The notes beneath the pieces were generated by a model. It was not told the origin of the DNA. It was given only the letters and a program-made list of their open reading frames with translations, and searched no databases. This document shows, piece after piece, positions 694 to 7,656 of a DNA stretch of 7,656 bases. The position numbers and the translations under genes were made by a program. Location of the stretch: the NCBI GenBank assembly GCA_030704615.1, contig JAKLZA010000151.1, forward strand, positions 1 through 7,656. The letters run 5' to 3'. The DNA is from Takakia lepidozioides. Taxonomy: Eukaryota; Plantae; Bryophyta. Each line of letters begins with the position of its first letter. Position 1 is the first letter of the stretch.

Positions 694-1940
694 ATGGAGG
701 AGATGTATGGAGCTACCAAGGGGCCACGAAGGTACTCTGGGGCGGTGGGCACCATCGAGTGGATGATTTTATCCAAGAGTTTGATAGTTGGTGTGATTTG
801 CAGCAAATGCGCAATCCACAACTATTTACGCCTTTCATGGCATGGAAGGGGCTTTCAGCACCTTGAGAGGGCCGCCTATGGATGATTACCATGAGTTCAG
901 GCGGGGGCATGAGGTTGAGATCGAGGAGTGGAGGAGTGTACTGGTCACCCGACTATGTCTCCATCACTAGGGGCACTAGAGCCACGAGGGCAGTGGCTAC
1001 ACCTGCCGCTGCACCGGCAGCTTCAGCAAGCGCAGTGGGACTGGTGGTACAGTAGCTACGCGACGTCCACCCAAGCCACTACCGCACCAGCACTAGCACT
1101 GCCTGCCTTCAACCCTGTGTGGAGTTCTTCGAAGAGTTGAGAGGGAACTACCAAGGGGTGAGGACAGAGAAGTTGCGGAGCTTGCAAGAGTTCCAACGGA
1201 AGCCGACGAGAGAGCTTGAGGGAGGCTTTCACTCGCATGAGGCGCTTGATAAATGTAACCCAAGGGGTTACGGAAGCTCAGGCAGTCCAATTCTGGTATG
1301 GGATATTGGACAAGGAGCTGAGGAGAAGGGTGCGGGATGCAACTCTCCTACAAGCGGCCCAACCCACCTTAGCAAATGTGTTTTTGCTGGCAGAGCGGAT
1401 AGAGCTCAACATGGTGGAGGAACGAGTGGTCATGGTGGGATTGCTAAGGAGACACCACGGGGTAGTGGTGCTCCTAGCCAACCACCACCTCAACGTGCTC
1501 AAGGCAACAAGGGGGGCTCAGGTGAAGCTCAGGGAAGGGCAGAGAGGACCTCAGATGCAGGGGTCTCTCCCTTCATTTGCTGGCCAACAACGAGCGGATG
1601 TGGTGTGCTGGACATGTGGAGGACCCCATGTCAAGAAGGATTGTCCAGAGGGAGGCAAAGGGCCGGCACATGCACAGCCTGCACAGTTACAGTGTGGGCA
1701 TTGTGGCAAACACGGGCATGGAGAGGCTCAGTGTTATGGTTTGCATCCTGAGTTGCGCCCAGGCCAGTTCCAAGGGAACAATGGTGGCCGGGGGTGAGGT
1801 GGAGCAGCCCAGAGGGGACAAGGTGGCCAGCCACGAGGTGCAGGCCAAGGGCAAGCTCAACGTGGCCAAGGACGCGGAGGTCAGGGTGTTGACCAAGGCA
1901 TGGCCAACGGCTTCAGCAGCTAGAGCAGAGGCTCGCTGCC
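694..1940 (+). pseudogene. gag: Gag (capsid-like region, nucleocapsid and G/Q/R-rich tail), frameshifted in this sequence; start approximate
   Basis: Stitched across frames: MEEMYGATKGPRRYSG / HRVDDFIQEFDSWCDLQQMRNPQLFTPFMAWKGL / PPMDDYHEF / FNPV-EFFEELRGNYQGVRTEKLRSLQEFQRKP / LREAFTRMRRLINVTQGVTEAQAVQFWYGILDKELRRRVRD, then two zinc knuckles. ATG 694 is in an acaATGG context. In-frame TGA at 1795-1797. Confidence 0.8.
1606..1734 (+). other. Two nucleocapsid zinc knuckles
   Basis: CWTCGGPHVKKDC (CX2CX3HX4C, 1606-1644) and CGHCGKHGHGEAQC (CX2CX4HX4C, 1693-1734) in ORF 1216..1797. Confidence 0.92.
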
Positions 1941-2670
1941 ATGGCTACAGCTCAGGTGGTACCGGCTCTAAGGCCGGATGGTCCACCTCCTGCTCCTGAG
2001 GGAGGAGATATGGGAGGCATGGGATTCATGTGTGGAGCAGCACTACCACTAGTGCAGGTGGAGTCTGCTGCAGCCGTGACTCGAGGAGCAGCACGAGTTC
2101 CTGAGCCACGAGGTGCAGAGGTGGAGTTGGATCCACAGCGTGGGGAGGCAAGCCGTCAGGCTAGGCTTCCTCAGTCATTCACATTGGCGGAGACAGTGTC
2201 GACGCCATCCATGGCACCTAGTTCTCGCCCGACTGTTACCGAGGCGGAGGTTACTATGCCATTGGGGAGAGCTACACGGGTAGCACCACTACCTAGTGTT
2301 GCCAAGGCTACGGCAGCTAGTGTGCTGCTAGGAGCGGCCACATCTGTGTGCCAGGCTCCATTGTTCTCGGCTACCATGATTGCGACGCCGGGGGGTAAGA
2401 CCAGCTGAGGTGTTCAGGCTGGCAGCTACACTCTGTGAGAGTGGGGAGGTTACTTCATCTTCTGCGGAGATAGTAGGAGGTGTAGTGCCGGAGGGATCCT
2501 CGGATTTGAGGGTCAAGACTGCCACGGCGGCGCCATGGCAAGCTGCAGCTGCCAGGTTGATGGAGCTGCCAGCTAGGCCAGCCATTGAGCGCGCCATGGT
2601 GACACCTGGAGTTGTCATGTTAGACAACCAGGATGGCATTTTCTGTTTGAGTGGACCGGCAGGCAAGAGG

Positions 2671-3000
2671 TACCGGCCACTGCGGGTCTTGTTGGACTCG
2701 GGAGCTCAGCCATTGATGCTGGGCAGAGCTGCTATTGCAGGCTTGGGCCTCACGGAGGCGGATATGGAGCCTTGTCCTTTCCAGATACAGACGTCTTTGG
2801 GAGGATCGGAGCAGGCTCGGGGCATGACACGGCGTGAGTTGGCTATCAGACTACGGCGGATCACCCTACAGATGGCTCAGTGATGCGAGCCAAGGCCATT
2901 GTGACAGACGCAGTCTCATACGATGTCCTGGTTGGTGGGGCAGTGTTGTACCCCATGGGCTTCACCCTGGATTTTTGGGAGGAGTCAGCTTCCTATAGGC
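2671..3000 (+). CDS. Retropepsin-type aspartic protease domain (one frameshift near 2855); boundaries approximate
   Basis: RVLLDSGAQPLML (DSG at 2695-2703) and flap-like IQTSLGG. After a frame change: KAIVTDAVSYDVLVGGAVLYPMGFTLDFW (YDVLVG 2919-2936, the C-terminal hydrophobic-hydrophobic-Gly motif). Confidence 0.9.
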
Positions 3001-3401: not shown

Positions 3402-4377
3402 GATGAAGGCATTTGTCTTCTGGACTTGTTTGGCGGGATCAGCACCGGATTGGCTGCTGTGTTACAGGCAGGTGTACGAGTTCGGCGTTACCTGTATGTG
3501 GAGAGGGATGAGACTGCACGACGCGTTTCACTTCGCCATGTTGCTCAGTTGGTGCAGCGGTACCCTGAGTTGTTGTCGGTGTCTGCAATTCGTGGATATC
3601 AGCAGGCCTTGCCAGCAGACATTTCGTTGCTGGGGGCGCAGGATTGGAGCGGGTTGGCTCCATTGATCTGGTAGTGGCAGGTTGGCCCTGCCAAGGGCAT
3701 TCATCAGCCGGGCATGGCAATGGATTGCGAGACTCGAGGTCGGGTCTGTTTTGGGAGATGGTGCGGGTTTTGCGCCACTTGCAGCTTCATCAAGCTGTAT
3801 CTCCAGCATACATCTTGGAGAATGTGCCACTGATGGGCGATTCTCGGGCCAGGGTGATGGCGAGTGTGCATCAAGTCCGGTCGTGGCTTGGGTCAGCAGT
3901 GTTGCTAGATGCAGCTACAGTGGGGTCACGGGCTCATCGTCCACGGCTATGGTGGACTAACATGATGCCACCCGCACTGCTCAAGCGTGCATTTGATGGG
4001 GTGCAGCGGCCAGCACATCTCACAGTGGATAACATTCTGGACACAGGGAGGCAGTCTCAACGTGTGAGACACGATGACCGTTCGCCTTTGGCAGTGGTCA
4101 ACAAGGTGGGTCAACCACGAGCAGCATTACCTACACTGCTCAGCTTCCCAGGATCGCATGCTTTCCGGGATAGTGGACCTGGCCTCCTGTGGGATGCTCA
4201 GTTGCAGCAGTTAGTGGAGCCTAATGCTGACGAGCGTGAGCGGGCAATGGTTTTACCACTGGTACCACGGCGGTGTCGTCTCTTTCTGAGGCATCACGTC
4301 GTCAAGTGTTGGGGCAAGCAATGGATCTCAATTGCTTGACCTGGATTATCAGCTTGGCTCTAGCTGAGCAACGCAGA
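3402..4377 (+). CDS. C5-cytosine DNA methyltransferase domain (DNMT3-like) within the polyprotein; split by two 1-nt frameshifts (~3644, ~4249)
   Basis: Motif I LDLFGGISTG (from 3420), II YVERD (E 3501), III DI (3618), IV DLVVAGWPCQG (catalytic PC 3686-3691), VI YILENV (ENV 3818-3826), VIII RAHRPRLWWTN (3929-3961), IX ERERAM-GF (4232-4254), X RRQVLGQAMD (LGQAMD 4309-4326). All in canonical order. Confidence 0.95.
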
Positions 4378-4653
4378 GTGCGGAATACACTTCCCTCAAT
4401 GGTCTCTCTGCCTACCGAGACGGTACAGGCAGTGAGTGGGGGCGAGCATATGAGGACCACGGGGTGCATGCATCCATGGCACACGTGGGAGGTGCTCGAG
4501 GTTCAGAGGGAGTTGGCAGCCAAGGCGGCTGTGATGGATGAGGTTGGGGATTCTTCTCGAGTTGAGGAGGTCCTCAAGGATGAGATGATGGGGCAGGATG
4601 ATGCCTTGTCATTGACTGAGCAGGTAGGGAGTACTGCTCAAGAGGTTGCAGCA

Positions 4654-4662
4654 TAGCAACCA
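4654..4662 (+). promoter_or_regulatory. Candidate stop-codon readthrough signal UAG-CAA-CCA (UAG-CARYYA) between DNMT and RT
   Basis: gca TAG CAA CCA. The same frame is open from DNMT motif X to the TAG and from 4657 into RT (ORF 4816). Confidence 0.5.
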
Positions 4663-4815
4663 CGGGACGCGTCCTCTACCTCTAAGCCCACTGGACTTAA
4701 GGTTGTAGTTACGGAGGACAATTGGGAGCCTGACATTGGACCCATTGTCACCGGAGGAGAGAGACGACGTATACGGCGGTTCCTGAGGGCTTACAGGAAT
4801 TGCTTTGCCTTCAGT

Positions 4816-5677
4816 TTGAAGGACTTGGGAGCACTGAAGGGTCAAGAGATCCGTATTGAGTTGGCCACTGACACGCCAATCTTTCGGAGACCCTATAGAT
4901 ACAGTGACATGGAGAGGTCTTTGATTCAGATGAGGACTCAAGATCTCTGGGAGGCAGGTTTGGTGGAGCTCTCTGGTGGAGAGTATGCTTCAGCCACAGT
5001 GATGCCAGCCAAGAAGGATGTCTATGGCAATTGGACGGAGAGACGTATGTGCGGTGATTACCGGCCTGTAAATCGTCAGACCAAGTCCGATAAGTATGCC
5101 ATGCCAACACCAGAGGAGATCTTTGATGCCATCGGGCATGCTAAGGCCTTTAGCACTTTGGATTTACGATCCGGATATCACCAGTTGCCAATCAAGGAGG
5201 CGGACAAGCAGAAGACGGCATTCTGGGGGATCAATGAGCACGGCAAGGATTGCCTATATCAGTGGCGGTTCTTACCATTTGGGCTTAAGAATGCTCCTGC
5301 AGAGTTTCAGAGAGTCATGGATAGGATTCTAGCAGGGGTGGACTTTGCTCGGTGCTACATAGATGACATCATCATCTTTAGTGTTACGATGGAGGAGCAT
5401 GAGAGACACCTTCAGGTGGTATTGGAGCGCTTGAGAGCGCACGGATTGAAGTTGCATCCGGGAAGTGCAAGTTTTTCCACAACCAGATTGAGTATCTGGG
5501 TCACATGATATATCCTGGAGGATTGGGGGTACAGCAGACTAAGGTAGAGGCCATTGCACAAATTCCACGCCCCACGGATGTGAGCCGAGTTCGAGCTTTC
5601 ATGGGGTTGGCAAACTATTATAGACGGTTTGTCAAGGGATTTAGTACCATTGCAAAGGCTCTAACAAGCTGACCAAG
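4816..5677 (+). CDS. pol: Reverse transcriptase (Ty3/Gypsy type); frameshifts at ~5461 and ~5663
   Basis: PIFRRPYRYS, RMCGDYRPVN, FSTLDLRSGYHQ (D 5161), KTAF, LPFGLKNAPAEFQR (5272), YIDD (5356-5367). In the next frame: KCKFFHNQIEYLGH...VRAFMGLANYYRRFVKGFSTIAK. Confidence 0.98.
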
Positions 5678-5785
5678 GTGGACCAGGAGTGGCAGTGGGA
5701 AGATGAGCAGGAACGAGCTTTTCAAGAGCTCAAGGCGAGGTTGACCTCGGCGCCTATCTTGAGACGACCTATCAGGGGGCGTCCC

Positions 5786-6145
5786 TTTCAGCTGCATACG
5801 GATTGGAGCATGCTGGGGCTTGGAGCGGTGCTCACACAGGTGGATGATGAGGGAAGAGAGTTCGTAGTGGCTTATGCTAGCCGCTCGAACAACGCTGCAG
5901 AGGCTAAGTACAGCTCATATGAGGGAGAGTGCTTAGCTGCAGTGTGGGCCGTGGCACACTTCAGGTGCTATCTATACGGCAATCTTTTCACCCTTGTCAC
6001 GGATCACCAGCCACTCAAGTGGTTGATGGAGTCAGACAAGCTTACAGGGAAGCTTGCACGGTGGGCACTTATACTCCAGGAGTATGACTTTCAGGTTGTG
6101 CATCGACCGGGTTTGGTCAATCGGGATGCGGATGGATTGAGTCGC
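5786..6145 (+). CDS. pol: RNase H (Ty3/Gypsy type)
   Basis: FQLHTDWSMLGLGAVL (D 5801), YSSYEGECLA (E 5927), VTDHQPL (D 6002), ARWALILQEYDF, ADGLSR (D 6131). Confidence 0.97.
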
Positions 6146-6547
6146 AATCCATGCATGAGCCAGCAGGATGACACTGGAGCTCGGTGGCATGGTGAGACGG
6201 ACGAGGAGATGGTGCCGGGATGGCACGCATCTGCATTTTTGTGTATCTTGGCATCGGGAGGTCAGATTGGACCTACAACAGGGATGACTGTAGACGGAGT
6301 GTCTGAGGACCCTGAGGCTAGTGATGAGCTAGGTGGTGCCAGAGATATACATGAGGATTCGGCTGTGTTGGACTACCTCCGCACGGGAGACACGGCAGCC
6401 ATTGTGACTGCCAGGGAGAGGGATCGGATCCTGCAACGAGCCAAGAGGTTCAAGTGGGAGGGGATACACCTACTTCGAGTGTGGGAGGGTGGTCGGGTGA
6501 GGATTGTGCCTCACCCCACACAGCGTGCACGGTTAGTGCGGCATGCC

Positions 6548-7198
6548 CATGAGGAGTTGGGGCATTTTGGAGTGCGACGCACTCACAGTTTACTGCAGGG
6601 GCAGTATTGGTGGCGTGGTATGCATACAGAGGTGCAACAGTTTGTGGCTAGGTGCATGGTGTGTGACAGGGTGCGTGCTTCATTCAACGCCCCTACACCA
6701 CAGTTGCATCCTTTACCTATCATGGGATTGGGCTACAGATGGAGTCTTGACTTCGCAAGACCGTTGCCACTGACTATGCGCCACCACAGATATGTGTTGG
6801 TGATGGTGGAGCACTTCTCCAAGTGGATTGAGTTGGTTCCATTGCCTGACAAGGCTAGTGAGGGGGCTGCGTATGCATTCTTGGATCGTGTGCTTAGCCG
6901 ATTTGGTGCTCCAGCTGAGGTACTCACGGACCAAGGGAGAGAGTTCTTGGGGGAGTTTCAGGCTTTGTGTGATAAAGCCTTGATAGACCACCGCACCACT
7001 TCTCGGGATCATCCTGAGGCCGATGGCTTAGCAGAGAGAGTTGTTCAGACGGTGAAGAGGGGTTTGCGCAAGTATGGCTTGCAGAAAGGACACCTAGGAG
7101 ATTGGGATCTTCAGGTTCCTTGGTTAGCCATGGGCTACAGGTTCAGCAAACAAGCATCACTTGCCTCCTTCTCACCATATTTCCTTCTCTTTGGCCGG
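6548..7198 (+). CDS. pol: Integrase zinc-binding and catalytic core
   Basis: HEELGH (6548, 6563)...CMVC (6653-6664); SLDF (D 6749), TDQG (D 6929), GLAER (E 7034); SPYFLLFGR. Confidence 0.97.
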
Positions 7199-7656
7199 AG
7201 CCGGATTTGCCTGCAGCCATTCGTAGGGACACTGCTCAAGTCCTTAACCTTGACGATCCGGACGTGTGGGTACGTGCATGTGATCAGCGTGCAGAGTTGT
7301 TCAAGAAAGTCATGCCCATGGCTTTTGAGAACCTTGCCATTGCACAGCACCGTGATACGTTGAGGTATGCCACTATACGTGGTGGAGGATATCGTCCTGG
7401 GGTTCGGAGGTTTAGCCCTGGTGACTATGTTTATTTGCAGCAGACTGCTCCTACGACTCTGGATGTTACTGCAGGGCGTGTTATTCTGAGGGTTCGAGAG
7501 GTGTTGCCCTCAGGGGTCCTGATCTTGGAGGGTCGGGATGGCATGACTTGGAAAGACCATGTGCGTAATTGTGCGCCATGTCACCTTCCCAATGTCGATG
7601 GCAGAGTTGACCCAAACTTGGCAGTGGTACCTGCAGGTTTGAGGTGCATGCTCTGT
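7198..7656 (+). CDS. Integrase C-terminal region (SH3-like module) then a CxxC at the window edge; not in the ORF track and open to the end
   Basis: The frame from 7198 has no stop: EPDLPAAIRRDTAQVLNLDDPDVWVRACDQRAELFKKVMPMAFENLAIAQHRDTLRYATIRGGGYRPGVRRFSPGDYVYLQQTAPTTLDVTAGRVILRVREVLPSGVLILEGRDGMTWKDHVRNCAPCHLPNVDGRVDPNLAVVPAGLRCMLC. FxxGDxVYL is typical of Gypsy integrase tails. Confidence 0.88.

Follow-up and report, generated by a model that had tools for sequence, protein, structure and literature searches.

What does a transposon gain from carrying an enzyme that silences transposons? The work of de Mendoza et al. left this question open in 2018, and its Gypsy example was algal (PMC5890265; statements about this and the other cited papers refer to the accessible parts of their texts). 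The question returns with a locus of the moss Takakia lepidozioides. In the whole stretch of 7,656 nucleotides analysed here, called the window below, a first-pass annotation had placed a complete C5 cytosine methyltransferase (DNMT) inside a Gypsy polyprotein, between protease and reverse transcriptase (RT). To what kind of element does the enzyme belong, how is it made, and what might it do?

The element in the window and its methyltransferase

What the window contains is the interior of a single dead Ty3/Gypsy retrotransposon copy, on the + strand. Gag with its pair of zinc knuckles comes first, then protease, methyltransferase, RT, RNase H and integrase, and a PHD finger begins at the far end. 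This includes the Gag-protease-RT-RNase H-integrase order and the DDE integrase of Ty3/Gypsy elements. The features are:

694..1794, +, Gag remnant, broken (tblastn with the Marchantia proteins P0001, P0003 and P0005, residue 1 falling on 694)
1606-1644 and 1693-1737, +, two CCHC zinc knuckles in the Gag remnant
2608..2856, +, aspartic protease, LLDSGA at 2689-2706 (Pfam Asp_protease_2, E 0.0025, under the curated cut-off)
3402..4377, +, DNMT3-type C5 cytosine methyltransferase, motifs I-X, last domain of ORF1 (PF00145, profile, fold)
3423-3449, +, motif I, DLFGGISTG
3495-3509, +, motif II, YVERD
3680-3697, +, motif IV, GWPCQG
3815-3826, +, motif VI, LENV
3935-3949, +, motif VIII, HRPRL
4232-4249, +, motif IX, ERERAM
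4309-4326, +, motif X, LGQAMD
4654..4662, +, conserved in-frame stop in a type-I readthrough-like context, TAG CAA CCA
4804..5669, +, reverse transcriptase and connection, YIDD at 5356-5367 (PF00078, E 6.7e-27)
5693..6166, +, RNase H (PF17917, E 5.2e-36)
6500..7180, +, integrase, HHCC zinc domain and D,D(35)E core (6743, 6926 and 7028 regions; PF17921, PF00665)
7198..7656, +, integrase C-terminal extension (65-77% identity to the equivalent region of loci L004-L022)

The methyltransferase is collinear with the protease upstream and with RT downstream, all on the same strand, as the first-pass annotation had it; RNase H and integrase also lie downstream. Its placement between protease and RT stands, and so does its membership in the element; the common polyprotein does not, because the methyltransferase is the last domain of ORF1, and a conserved stop stands between it and RT.

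The copy has at least eight frame changes, and its RT region is frameshifted near 5460. Indels distinguish sibling contigs at several of the frame-change sites, so the breaks belong to the window copy alone. On the Gag side the frame is open from 511; a Pfam search of the Gag part 1162-1794 gave no match. A peptide of the form TR-x(3-4)-R-x(2-3)-PSP is encoded at 553-600, 5' of the Met at 694, and was found by eye also in L001, L016 and L018. ORF1 may start further upstream than this Met, in some subfamilies without an in-frame ATG. The protease shares 38-69% identity with the equivalent region of relatives. At the other end, the PHD finger's first Cys pair is likely where the window stops; in the intact L018 the integrase extension continues into such a finger (PF00628, E 2.6e-10).

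The methyltransferase is indeed complete. Motifs I to X lie within 3402-4377 in canonical, unrearranged order, with the catalytic Cys, ENV and RxR of motifs IV, VI and VIII intact, as in the DNMT3 family. The two indels noticed earlier are frameshifts near 3643 and 4250, which spread the motifs over three frames. The middle piece matches PF00145 (E 1e-12, 48.6 bits, cut-off 22); the two short end pieces, each taken alone, matched no Pfam family. Among solved structures the middle piece finds DNMT3A best (E 1.9e-5). A family profile of 69 sequences, run against the PDB, reaches DNMT3A at E 1.8e-25, the tobacco-type/DRM2 chains at 7.7e-13 to 6e-10 and M.HhaI at 1.4e-9. The fold was modelled on the intact domain of the relative L001, which is 62-71% identical to the window's pieces (pLDDT 96.7, pTM 0.94). 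All 29 Foldseek matches listed for this model are DNMT3A, B or C, the best with E 1.2e-19, a TM score of 0.83 by target and 21% identity. Judged by profile and modelled fold, the nearest enzymes are DNMT3A/B, with DRM, DNMT1/2 and bacterial ones further away; identity is only about 21%.

In the relatives, aligned per site, the Cys of motif IV is kept in 207 of 210, the Glu of motif VI in 220 of 222, and the two Arg of motif VIII in 217 and 219 of 226; together with the SAM-binding Gly these residues are nearly invariant at 35-75% identity. Ahead of the catalytic Cys, about half of the distant relatives have Glu for Pro, which is unusual for C5 methyltransferases. It is found in 22 of 28 single-ORF relatives and in 48 of 104 with the order RNase H-DNMT-integrase; the window's own group retains Pro-Cys in 43 of 46. 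When 4252-4326 of the window is aligned to DNMT3A, Ala and Glu stand at the positions of the homodimer Asp and the DNA-contacting Arg, which we take to be D876 and R882. Going by this alignment, oligomer state and flanking preference may differ from those of DNMT3A.

The stop between methyltransferase and reverse transcriptase

The stop is a state of the family and not a product of decay of the window copy. TAR-CAR-YY, in the RT frame and 44-51 codons 5' of RT, is found in all 22 sequences with an RT match; these are redundant and collapse to five subfamilies, 17 of the 22 belonging to a single one. Five of the eight loci without an RT match have it as well, the other three being cut or deleted there. 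The junctions read:

window subfamily, TAG CAA CCA
L001 subfamily, TAG CAA CCA
L017/L018 subfamily, TAG CAG TTA
L022/L032 subfamily, TAG CAA TCA
L016 group, TAG or TAA CAA CCC

UAG-CAR-YYA, the type-I readthrough consensus of tobamoviruses (PMC3542737), is thus fully matched in the window and in four of the five subfamilies; the fifth, with 17 of the 22 sequences, has CAA-CCC, behind TAA in 7 of the 17. As background, TARCARYY occurs at 75 of 6583 TAR sites in these loci, junction sites counted in. The amino acids at the junction vary (QP, QL, QS) while YY is constant. Synonymous sites are near saturation and the flanking sequences have little in common, so that conservation of these eight bases speaks for selection. 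From DNMT to RT the distance varies across the five subfamilies, the frame being kept throughout. L018 consists of 1369 open codons, one stop and 1047 open codons, i.e., it has one internal stop in 2418 codons. Within the window's family, sibling contigs from four runs (at most two samples) have no variant of 4% or more at 4652-4663, and 12 other places of 151 vary; these 12 invariant bases alone are not significant.

Because the in-frame stop separates DNMT from RT, ORF1 is Gag-protease-DNMT3; ORF2, in the same frame, comprises RT, RNase H, integrase and PHD finger. Many relatives are Gag-protease-DNMT proteins that end 55-180 residues past the domain. The DNA of the stop was read only in the window and in metagenome contigs; Marchantia and Calypogeia contribute predicted proteins that end at the equivalent point. 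Predicted proteins with RT only were not counted as evidence of the stop, since they are found outside the stop clade too.

In the DNMT tree one clade of 35 members (local support 0.965) contains all five stop subfamilies. Only three of its members join RT to the domain, and these are Marchantia gene models whose alignments skip the stop. The RT tree has a matching clade (support 0.996). Outside the stop clade, DNMT and RT share one protein in 24 of 28 relatives with the domain before RT or after protease; these more distant one-ORF relatives include P0105, P0242, P0405 and Closterium proteins. Both trees place the window among liverwort-named and moss-like sequences. The trees, built with FastTree and its local supports from sequences other than those of Klebsormidium, omit near-duplicates, short matches and most of the relatives with RNase H-DNMT-integrase order (the RT tree retains 19 of them, the DNMT tree 21 of 141). 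A Coleochaete scutata transcript, P0255, codes for a stop-clade protein that is complete from RT to PHD, with 71% RT identity and a longer leader of 91 residues; at least one alga thus transcribes a member of the clade.

How, then, is RT made? Readthrough of the stop is the likely route. In tobamoviruses an in-frame UAG with CAR-YY behind it determines how much of each of two products is made (PMC3542737), and the same is predicted for the window's clade. A stimulatory RNA structure 3' of the stop was looked for in 7 sequences; z ranged from -0.06 to -1.98, none being clear and none being seen in the window. In the Tca2 retrotransposon the local context of the in-frame stop did not direct readthrough in yeast (PMC2194720). 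The stops of MuLV, Tca2 and SIRE1 lie between gag and pol or between pol and env (PMC2194720), whereas the present one follows the protease and a captured enzyme.

The stop could also be real and ORF2 be reached by other means: ribosomes might reinitiate at a near ATG or GTG, a promoter might lie inside the element, or the RNA might be spliced. In each case DNMT and Gag would still be produced together. Splicing has a model in the Ogre elements, where the stop is spliced out. Here the frame is held across five linker lengths and the least decayed copies have no other stop, which is unlike an intron. Reinitiation could make use of an ATG or GTG that most subfamilies have as the third or fifth codon past the stop: ATG is the third in the L016 group and the fifth in L017 and P0258, and L001, L018 and L022 have GTG in one or the other place. 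The window family, however, has CGG at codon 3 in most of its sibling depth and no Met before the RT core; in the window, as in L018, the first 60-61 codons after the stop lack Met. Finally, CAR-YY is conserved at the nucleotide level. We consider these other routes quite unlikely and keep to readthrough.

Relatives, copies and element ends

A search for longer relatives yielded 96 proteins. The best, 62-72% identical, are named from Marchantia polymorpha, with at least 15 predicted proteins among the matches, and from Calypogeia fissa; Sphagnum and Closterium come next, and Coleochaete too is among the organisms that name relatives. In the representative protein library, 490 clusters match at E up to 1e-10; host DNMT3 sequences did not turn up in these protein searches. 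In 32 of 51 metagenome loci the match extends to the element around the domain; the remaining 19 (L033-L051) match the catalytic core alone and were left out of the analysis. No relative was detected in the viral contigs searched. Two family members, P0324 and P0024, were deposited as bacterial (uncultured cyanobacterium, Obscuribacterales); they are likely eukaryotic contamination of metagenome bins.

The order of the element is the same in about 30 metagenome loci and in the named plant proteins. These relatives align collinearly with the window, and their alignments contain neither an intron nor a separate insert, in agreement with what had been read from the window alone. The window's family is high-copy and evenly covered: 41,457 and 86,427 contig records (two runs, one sample) span all 30 bins including those of the DNMT, i.e., the sibling copies carry the domain. 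A single RNA run yielded 3 poor reads and is no guide to expression in the host. An internally deleted copy, L012 5948-11598, has kept Gag, protease and DNMT, lacks RT, RNase H and the integrase core and has its own target duplication; it is possibly a non-autonomous derivative that moved.

The domain is, from sequence comparison, under purifying selection. The proposed check for a dN/dS below 1 gave 0.08 (window versus L006), 0.15, 0.11, 0.13 and 0.09 for the DNMT between subfamilies; four other pairs have saturated synonymous sites and a pN of 0.21-0.36. For the one pair with both values, the DNMT has 0.11 and RT 0.04. Close decayed copies have 0.41-0.62. These figures stem from 10 sequences in gap-free blocks. 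CpG depletion (observed/expected 0.27-0.70) was rejected as a sign of self-methylation, because host methylation explains it equally and a control of DNMT-free elements from the same hosts is lacking.

Another proposed check, whether the DNMT lies always between protease and RT, gave a negative answer: as classed, 141 of 318 DNMT-bearing relatives have it between RNase H and integrase. This second large architecture, RT-RNase H-DNMT-integrase-PHD (P0116, P0245, P0207, P0046, P0051 and others), includes sequences named from the chlorophytes Scenedesmus and Cymbomonas, and no description of it was found in the literature examined. Going by these domain orders, elements related to each other have had the domain at two places. 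By RT, the nearest kin beyond the DNMT group include elements that carry an adenine methyltransferase domain, PF05869 (P0318, P0321).

Terminal repeats are absent from the window. In the relatives, two identical terminal LTRs with a target duplication are not what is found; they carry split repeats instead. L016 has them completely, as A-coding-B-A-B with a 4-bp target duplication (1679-2017, 10238-10805). In L009 and L012 the repeats end after B, L018 and L022 have the B-A junction, and L023 is rearranged. The ends are TG...CA, and the three copies with both ends all have 4-bp duplications (AAGG, CACA and ATGT). L016 further has a polypurine tract before B, a palindromic B/A junction and a self-priming-like site. 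In three subfamilies the B/A junction forms a short palindrome whose arms are separated by 2 bases (L018 8645-8675, L022 8224-8254); A2-B2 differs between L016 and L023. This pattern is compatible with B+A being the true LTR and a palindrome within it being the site of the cut. Just past repeat A, at 2017-2033, L016 has 17 bases complementary to about 1842-1858 inside A; such self-complements measure 17 nt in 2 of 7 copies and 8-11 nt in the rest. A TGG-type site after repeat A was not seen, by eye only. By analogy with Tf1, self-priming in place of a tRNA primer is likely.

What the enzyme may do for the element, and for its hosts

The precedent in a charophyte, named in the first-pass annotation, holds. 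KnitGypsy-Dnmt3 of Klebsormidium nitens is a Gypsy element with a DNMT3-type domain and a Ka/Ks under 0.2 (de Mendoza et al. 2018, PMC5890265). It shares with the present family the conserved catalytic residues and purifying selection, and also the DIRS-like split repeats A-coding-B-A-B, seen here in the relative L016 and not in the window. The differences are that KnitGypsy has the DNMT in one ORF with RT and RNase H, whereas the stop of the window's clade puts it into ORF1 with Gag and protease, and that KnitGypsy is described from one alga with few copies, whereas the present family is high-copy with relatives in liverworts and peat mosses (PMC5890265). Since the one-ORF feature is absent, the window element is classed as a variant working like KnitGypsy-Dnmt3. 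None of the matches bears the name Klebsormidium; the window's tie to streptophyte algae runs through relatives named from Coleochaete, Closterium and Spirogloea, and the origin is probably shared.

Other elements are less close. The SymbioDIRS-Dnmt3 domains are likewise retroelement-borne DNMT3 and, in the accessible text, the only ones shown to methylate CG de novo; they belong to dinoflagellate DIRS elements with a tyrosine recombinase and were captured independently, the present ones being of Gypsy type (PMC5890265). EpiLTRs and DAM-LTRs are also Gypsy elements with methyltransferases, but have an adenine methyltransferase, a DNMT4-sister enzyme and a chromodomain, and their authors regard them as distinct from streptophyte Gypsy-DNMT3 (bioRxiv 10.64898/2026.05.21.726589). 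Phygy of Physcomitrella is likewise a bryophyte Gypsy without chromodomain, about 8.6 kb long and with a 4-bp target duplication; it has NCGN target sites and a tRNA-Trp primer site, and the accessible account lists no extra domain (Neumann et al. 2019, PMC6317226). Membership in Phygy, suggested by size, was dismissed, as the duplications of the relatives, from other hosts, do not fit NCGN.

The following sequence of events is proposed. Most ribosomes would halt at the stop, and a few would read through to make RT-RNase H-integrase-PHD. Retroelements require about 20 Gag per Pol (PMC2194720) and, with the DNMT upstream of the stop, the methyltransferase would thus be made at the level of Gag. 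Fused to Gag, it would assemble into the particle, be freed there by the protease and methylate the new cDNA while this is being formed. CG is the likely context, by analogy with related dinoflagellate retrotransposon domains, which methylated CG de novo in yeast (PMC5890265). KnitGypsy-Dnmt3, the one Gypsy-type domain tested, was inactive in yeast, a result its authors call inconclusive (PMC5890265). Methylation before arrival may protect the cDNA or disguise it. We regard it as probable that the enzyme is packaged with Gag, released by the protease and methylates cDNA de novo, CG probably being its target; on arrival the copy would then resemble methylated host DNA. For the reading as a whole, i.e., DNMT in ORF1 before a readthrough stop, enzyme at Gag level and cDNA methylated in the particle, we see slightly better than even chances.

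The enzyme might, instead, act mainly on chromosomes, at the insertion site or on copies in trans, e.g., by damping its own family or silencing competitors. An amount at Gag level would far exceed the need of one cDNA, and the integrase ends in a PHD chromatin reader. Fusion to Gag, however, favours packaging in the cytoplasm, as is established for retroelements. Self-limitation and effects on the host methylome are among the possibilities raised by de Mendoza et al.; the methylome of Klebsormidium, on the other hand, resembles an ordinary plant methylome (PMC5890265). We hold a mainly chromosomal action to be unlikely, yet worth keeping in mind. That the domain persists for something other than catalysis, e.g., to bind or shield cDNA or RNA within the particle, appears very unlikely: the inactivity of the Klebsormidium domain in yeast (PMC5890265) and the Glu ahead of the catalytic Cys in many relatives would suit it, but not the near invariance of the catalytic and SAM-binding residues, nor the Pro-Cys of the window's own group. 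A one-off insertion, a chimeric assembly or a neutrally decaying passenger has practically no chance. The window copy is dead, to be sure; the collinear loci and plant proteins, the even coverage by siblings and a dN/dS near 0.1 refute the idea. Methylation of the cDNA in the particle is the reading we retain.

How much of this is new? The class of Gypsy-DNMT3 elements is already known from one alga (PMC5890265); what is added is its range into land plants and the position of the stop. The surmise that its presence in this lineage is undescribed holds insofar as land-plant copies were not found in print. A literature search covering few subscription papers returned no report of them or of the conserved stop, and neither appears in the accessible parts of PMC11982613, PMC11244446, PMC6453930, PMC12344493, PMC5009743 and bioRxiv 10.1101/2021.02.12.428880. 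A 2025 paper and a 2026 preprint (bioRxiv 10.64898/2026.05.21.726589) attribute the class, in their accessible text, only to 'streptophytes', and Marchantia is absent from the species table of PMC5890265.

For bryophyte genomics there is a practical side: copies of the family can inflate DNMT counts, and three Marchantia gene models skip the stop. If made with Gag, the enzyme would outnumber RT many times over; this speaks against the strictly cis picture of 2018 with one enzyme per RT (PMC5890265). Since relatives occur in Marchantia polymorpha, a genetic model with methyltransferase mutants, the question of what the element gains is testable. Our widest proposal is tentative, and we would not put it at even chances: a clade of bryophytes and streptophyte algae, Marchantia included, would have moved its leaky stop beyond a captured DNMT3, so that its particles are lined with methyltransferase and its cDNA is methylated in advance and integrated via the palindrome of the repeats. 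Such elements may contribute to de novo methylation in non-seed plants without having been recognised as its source.
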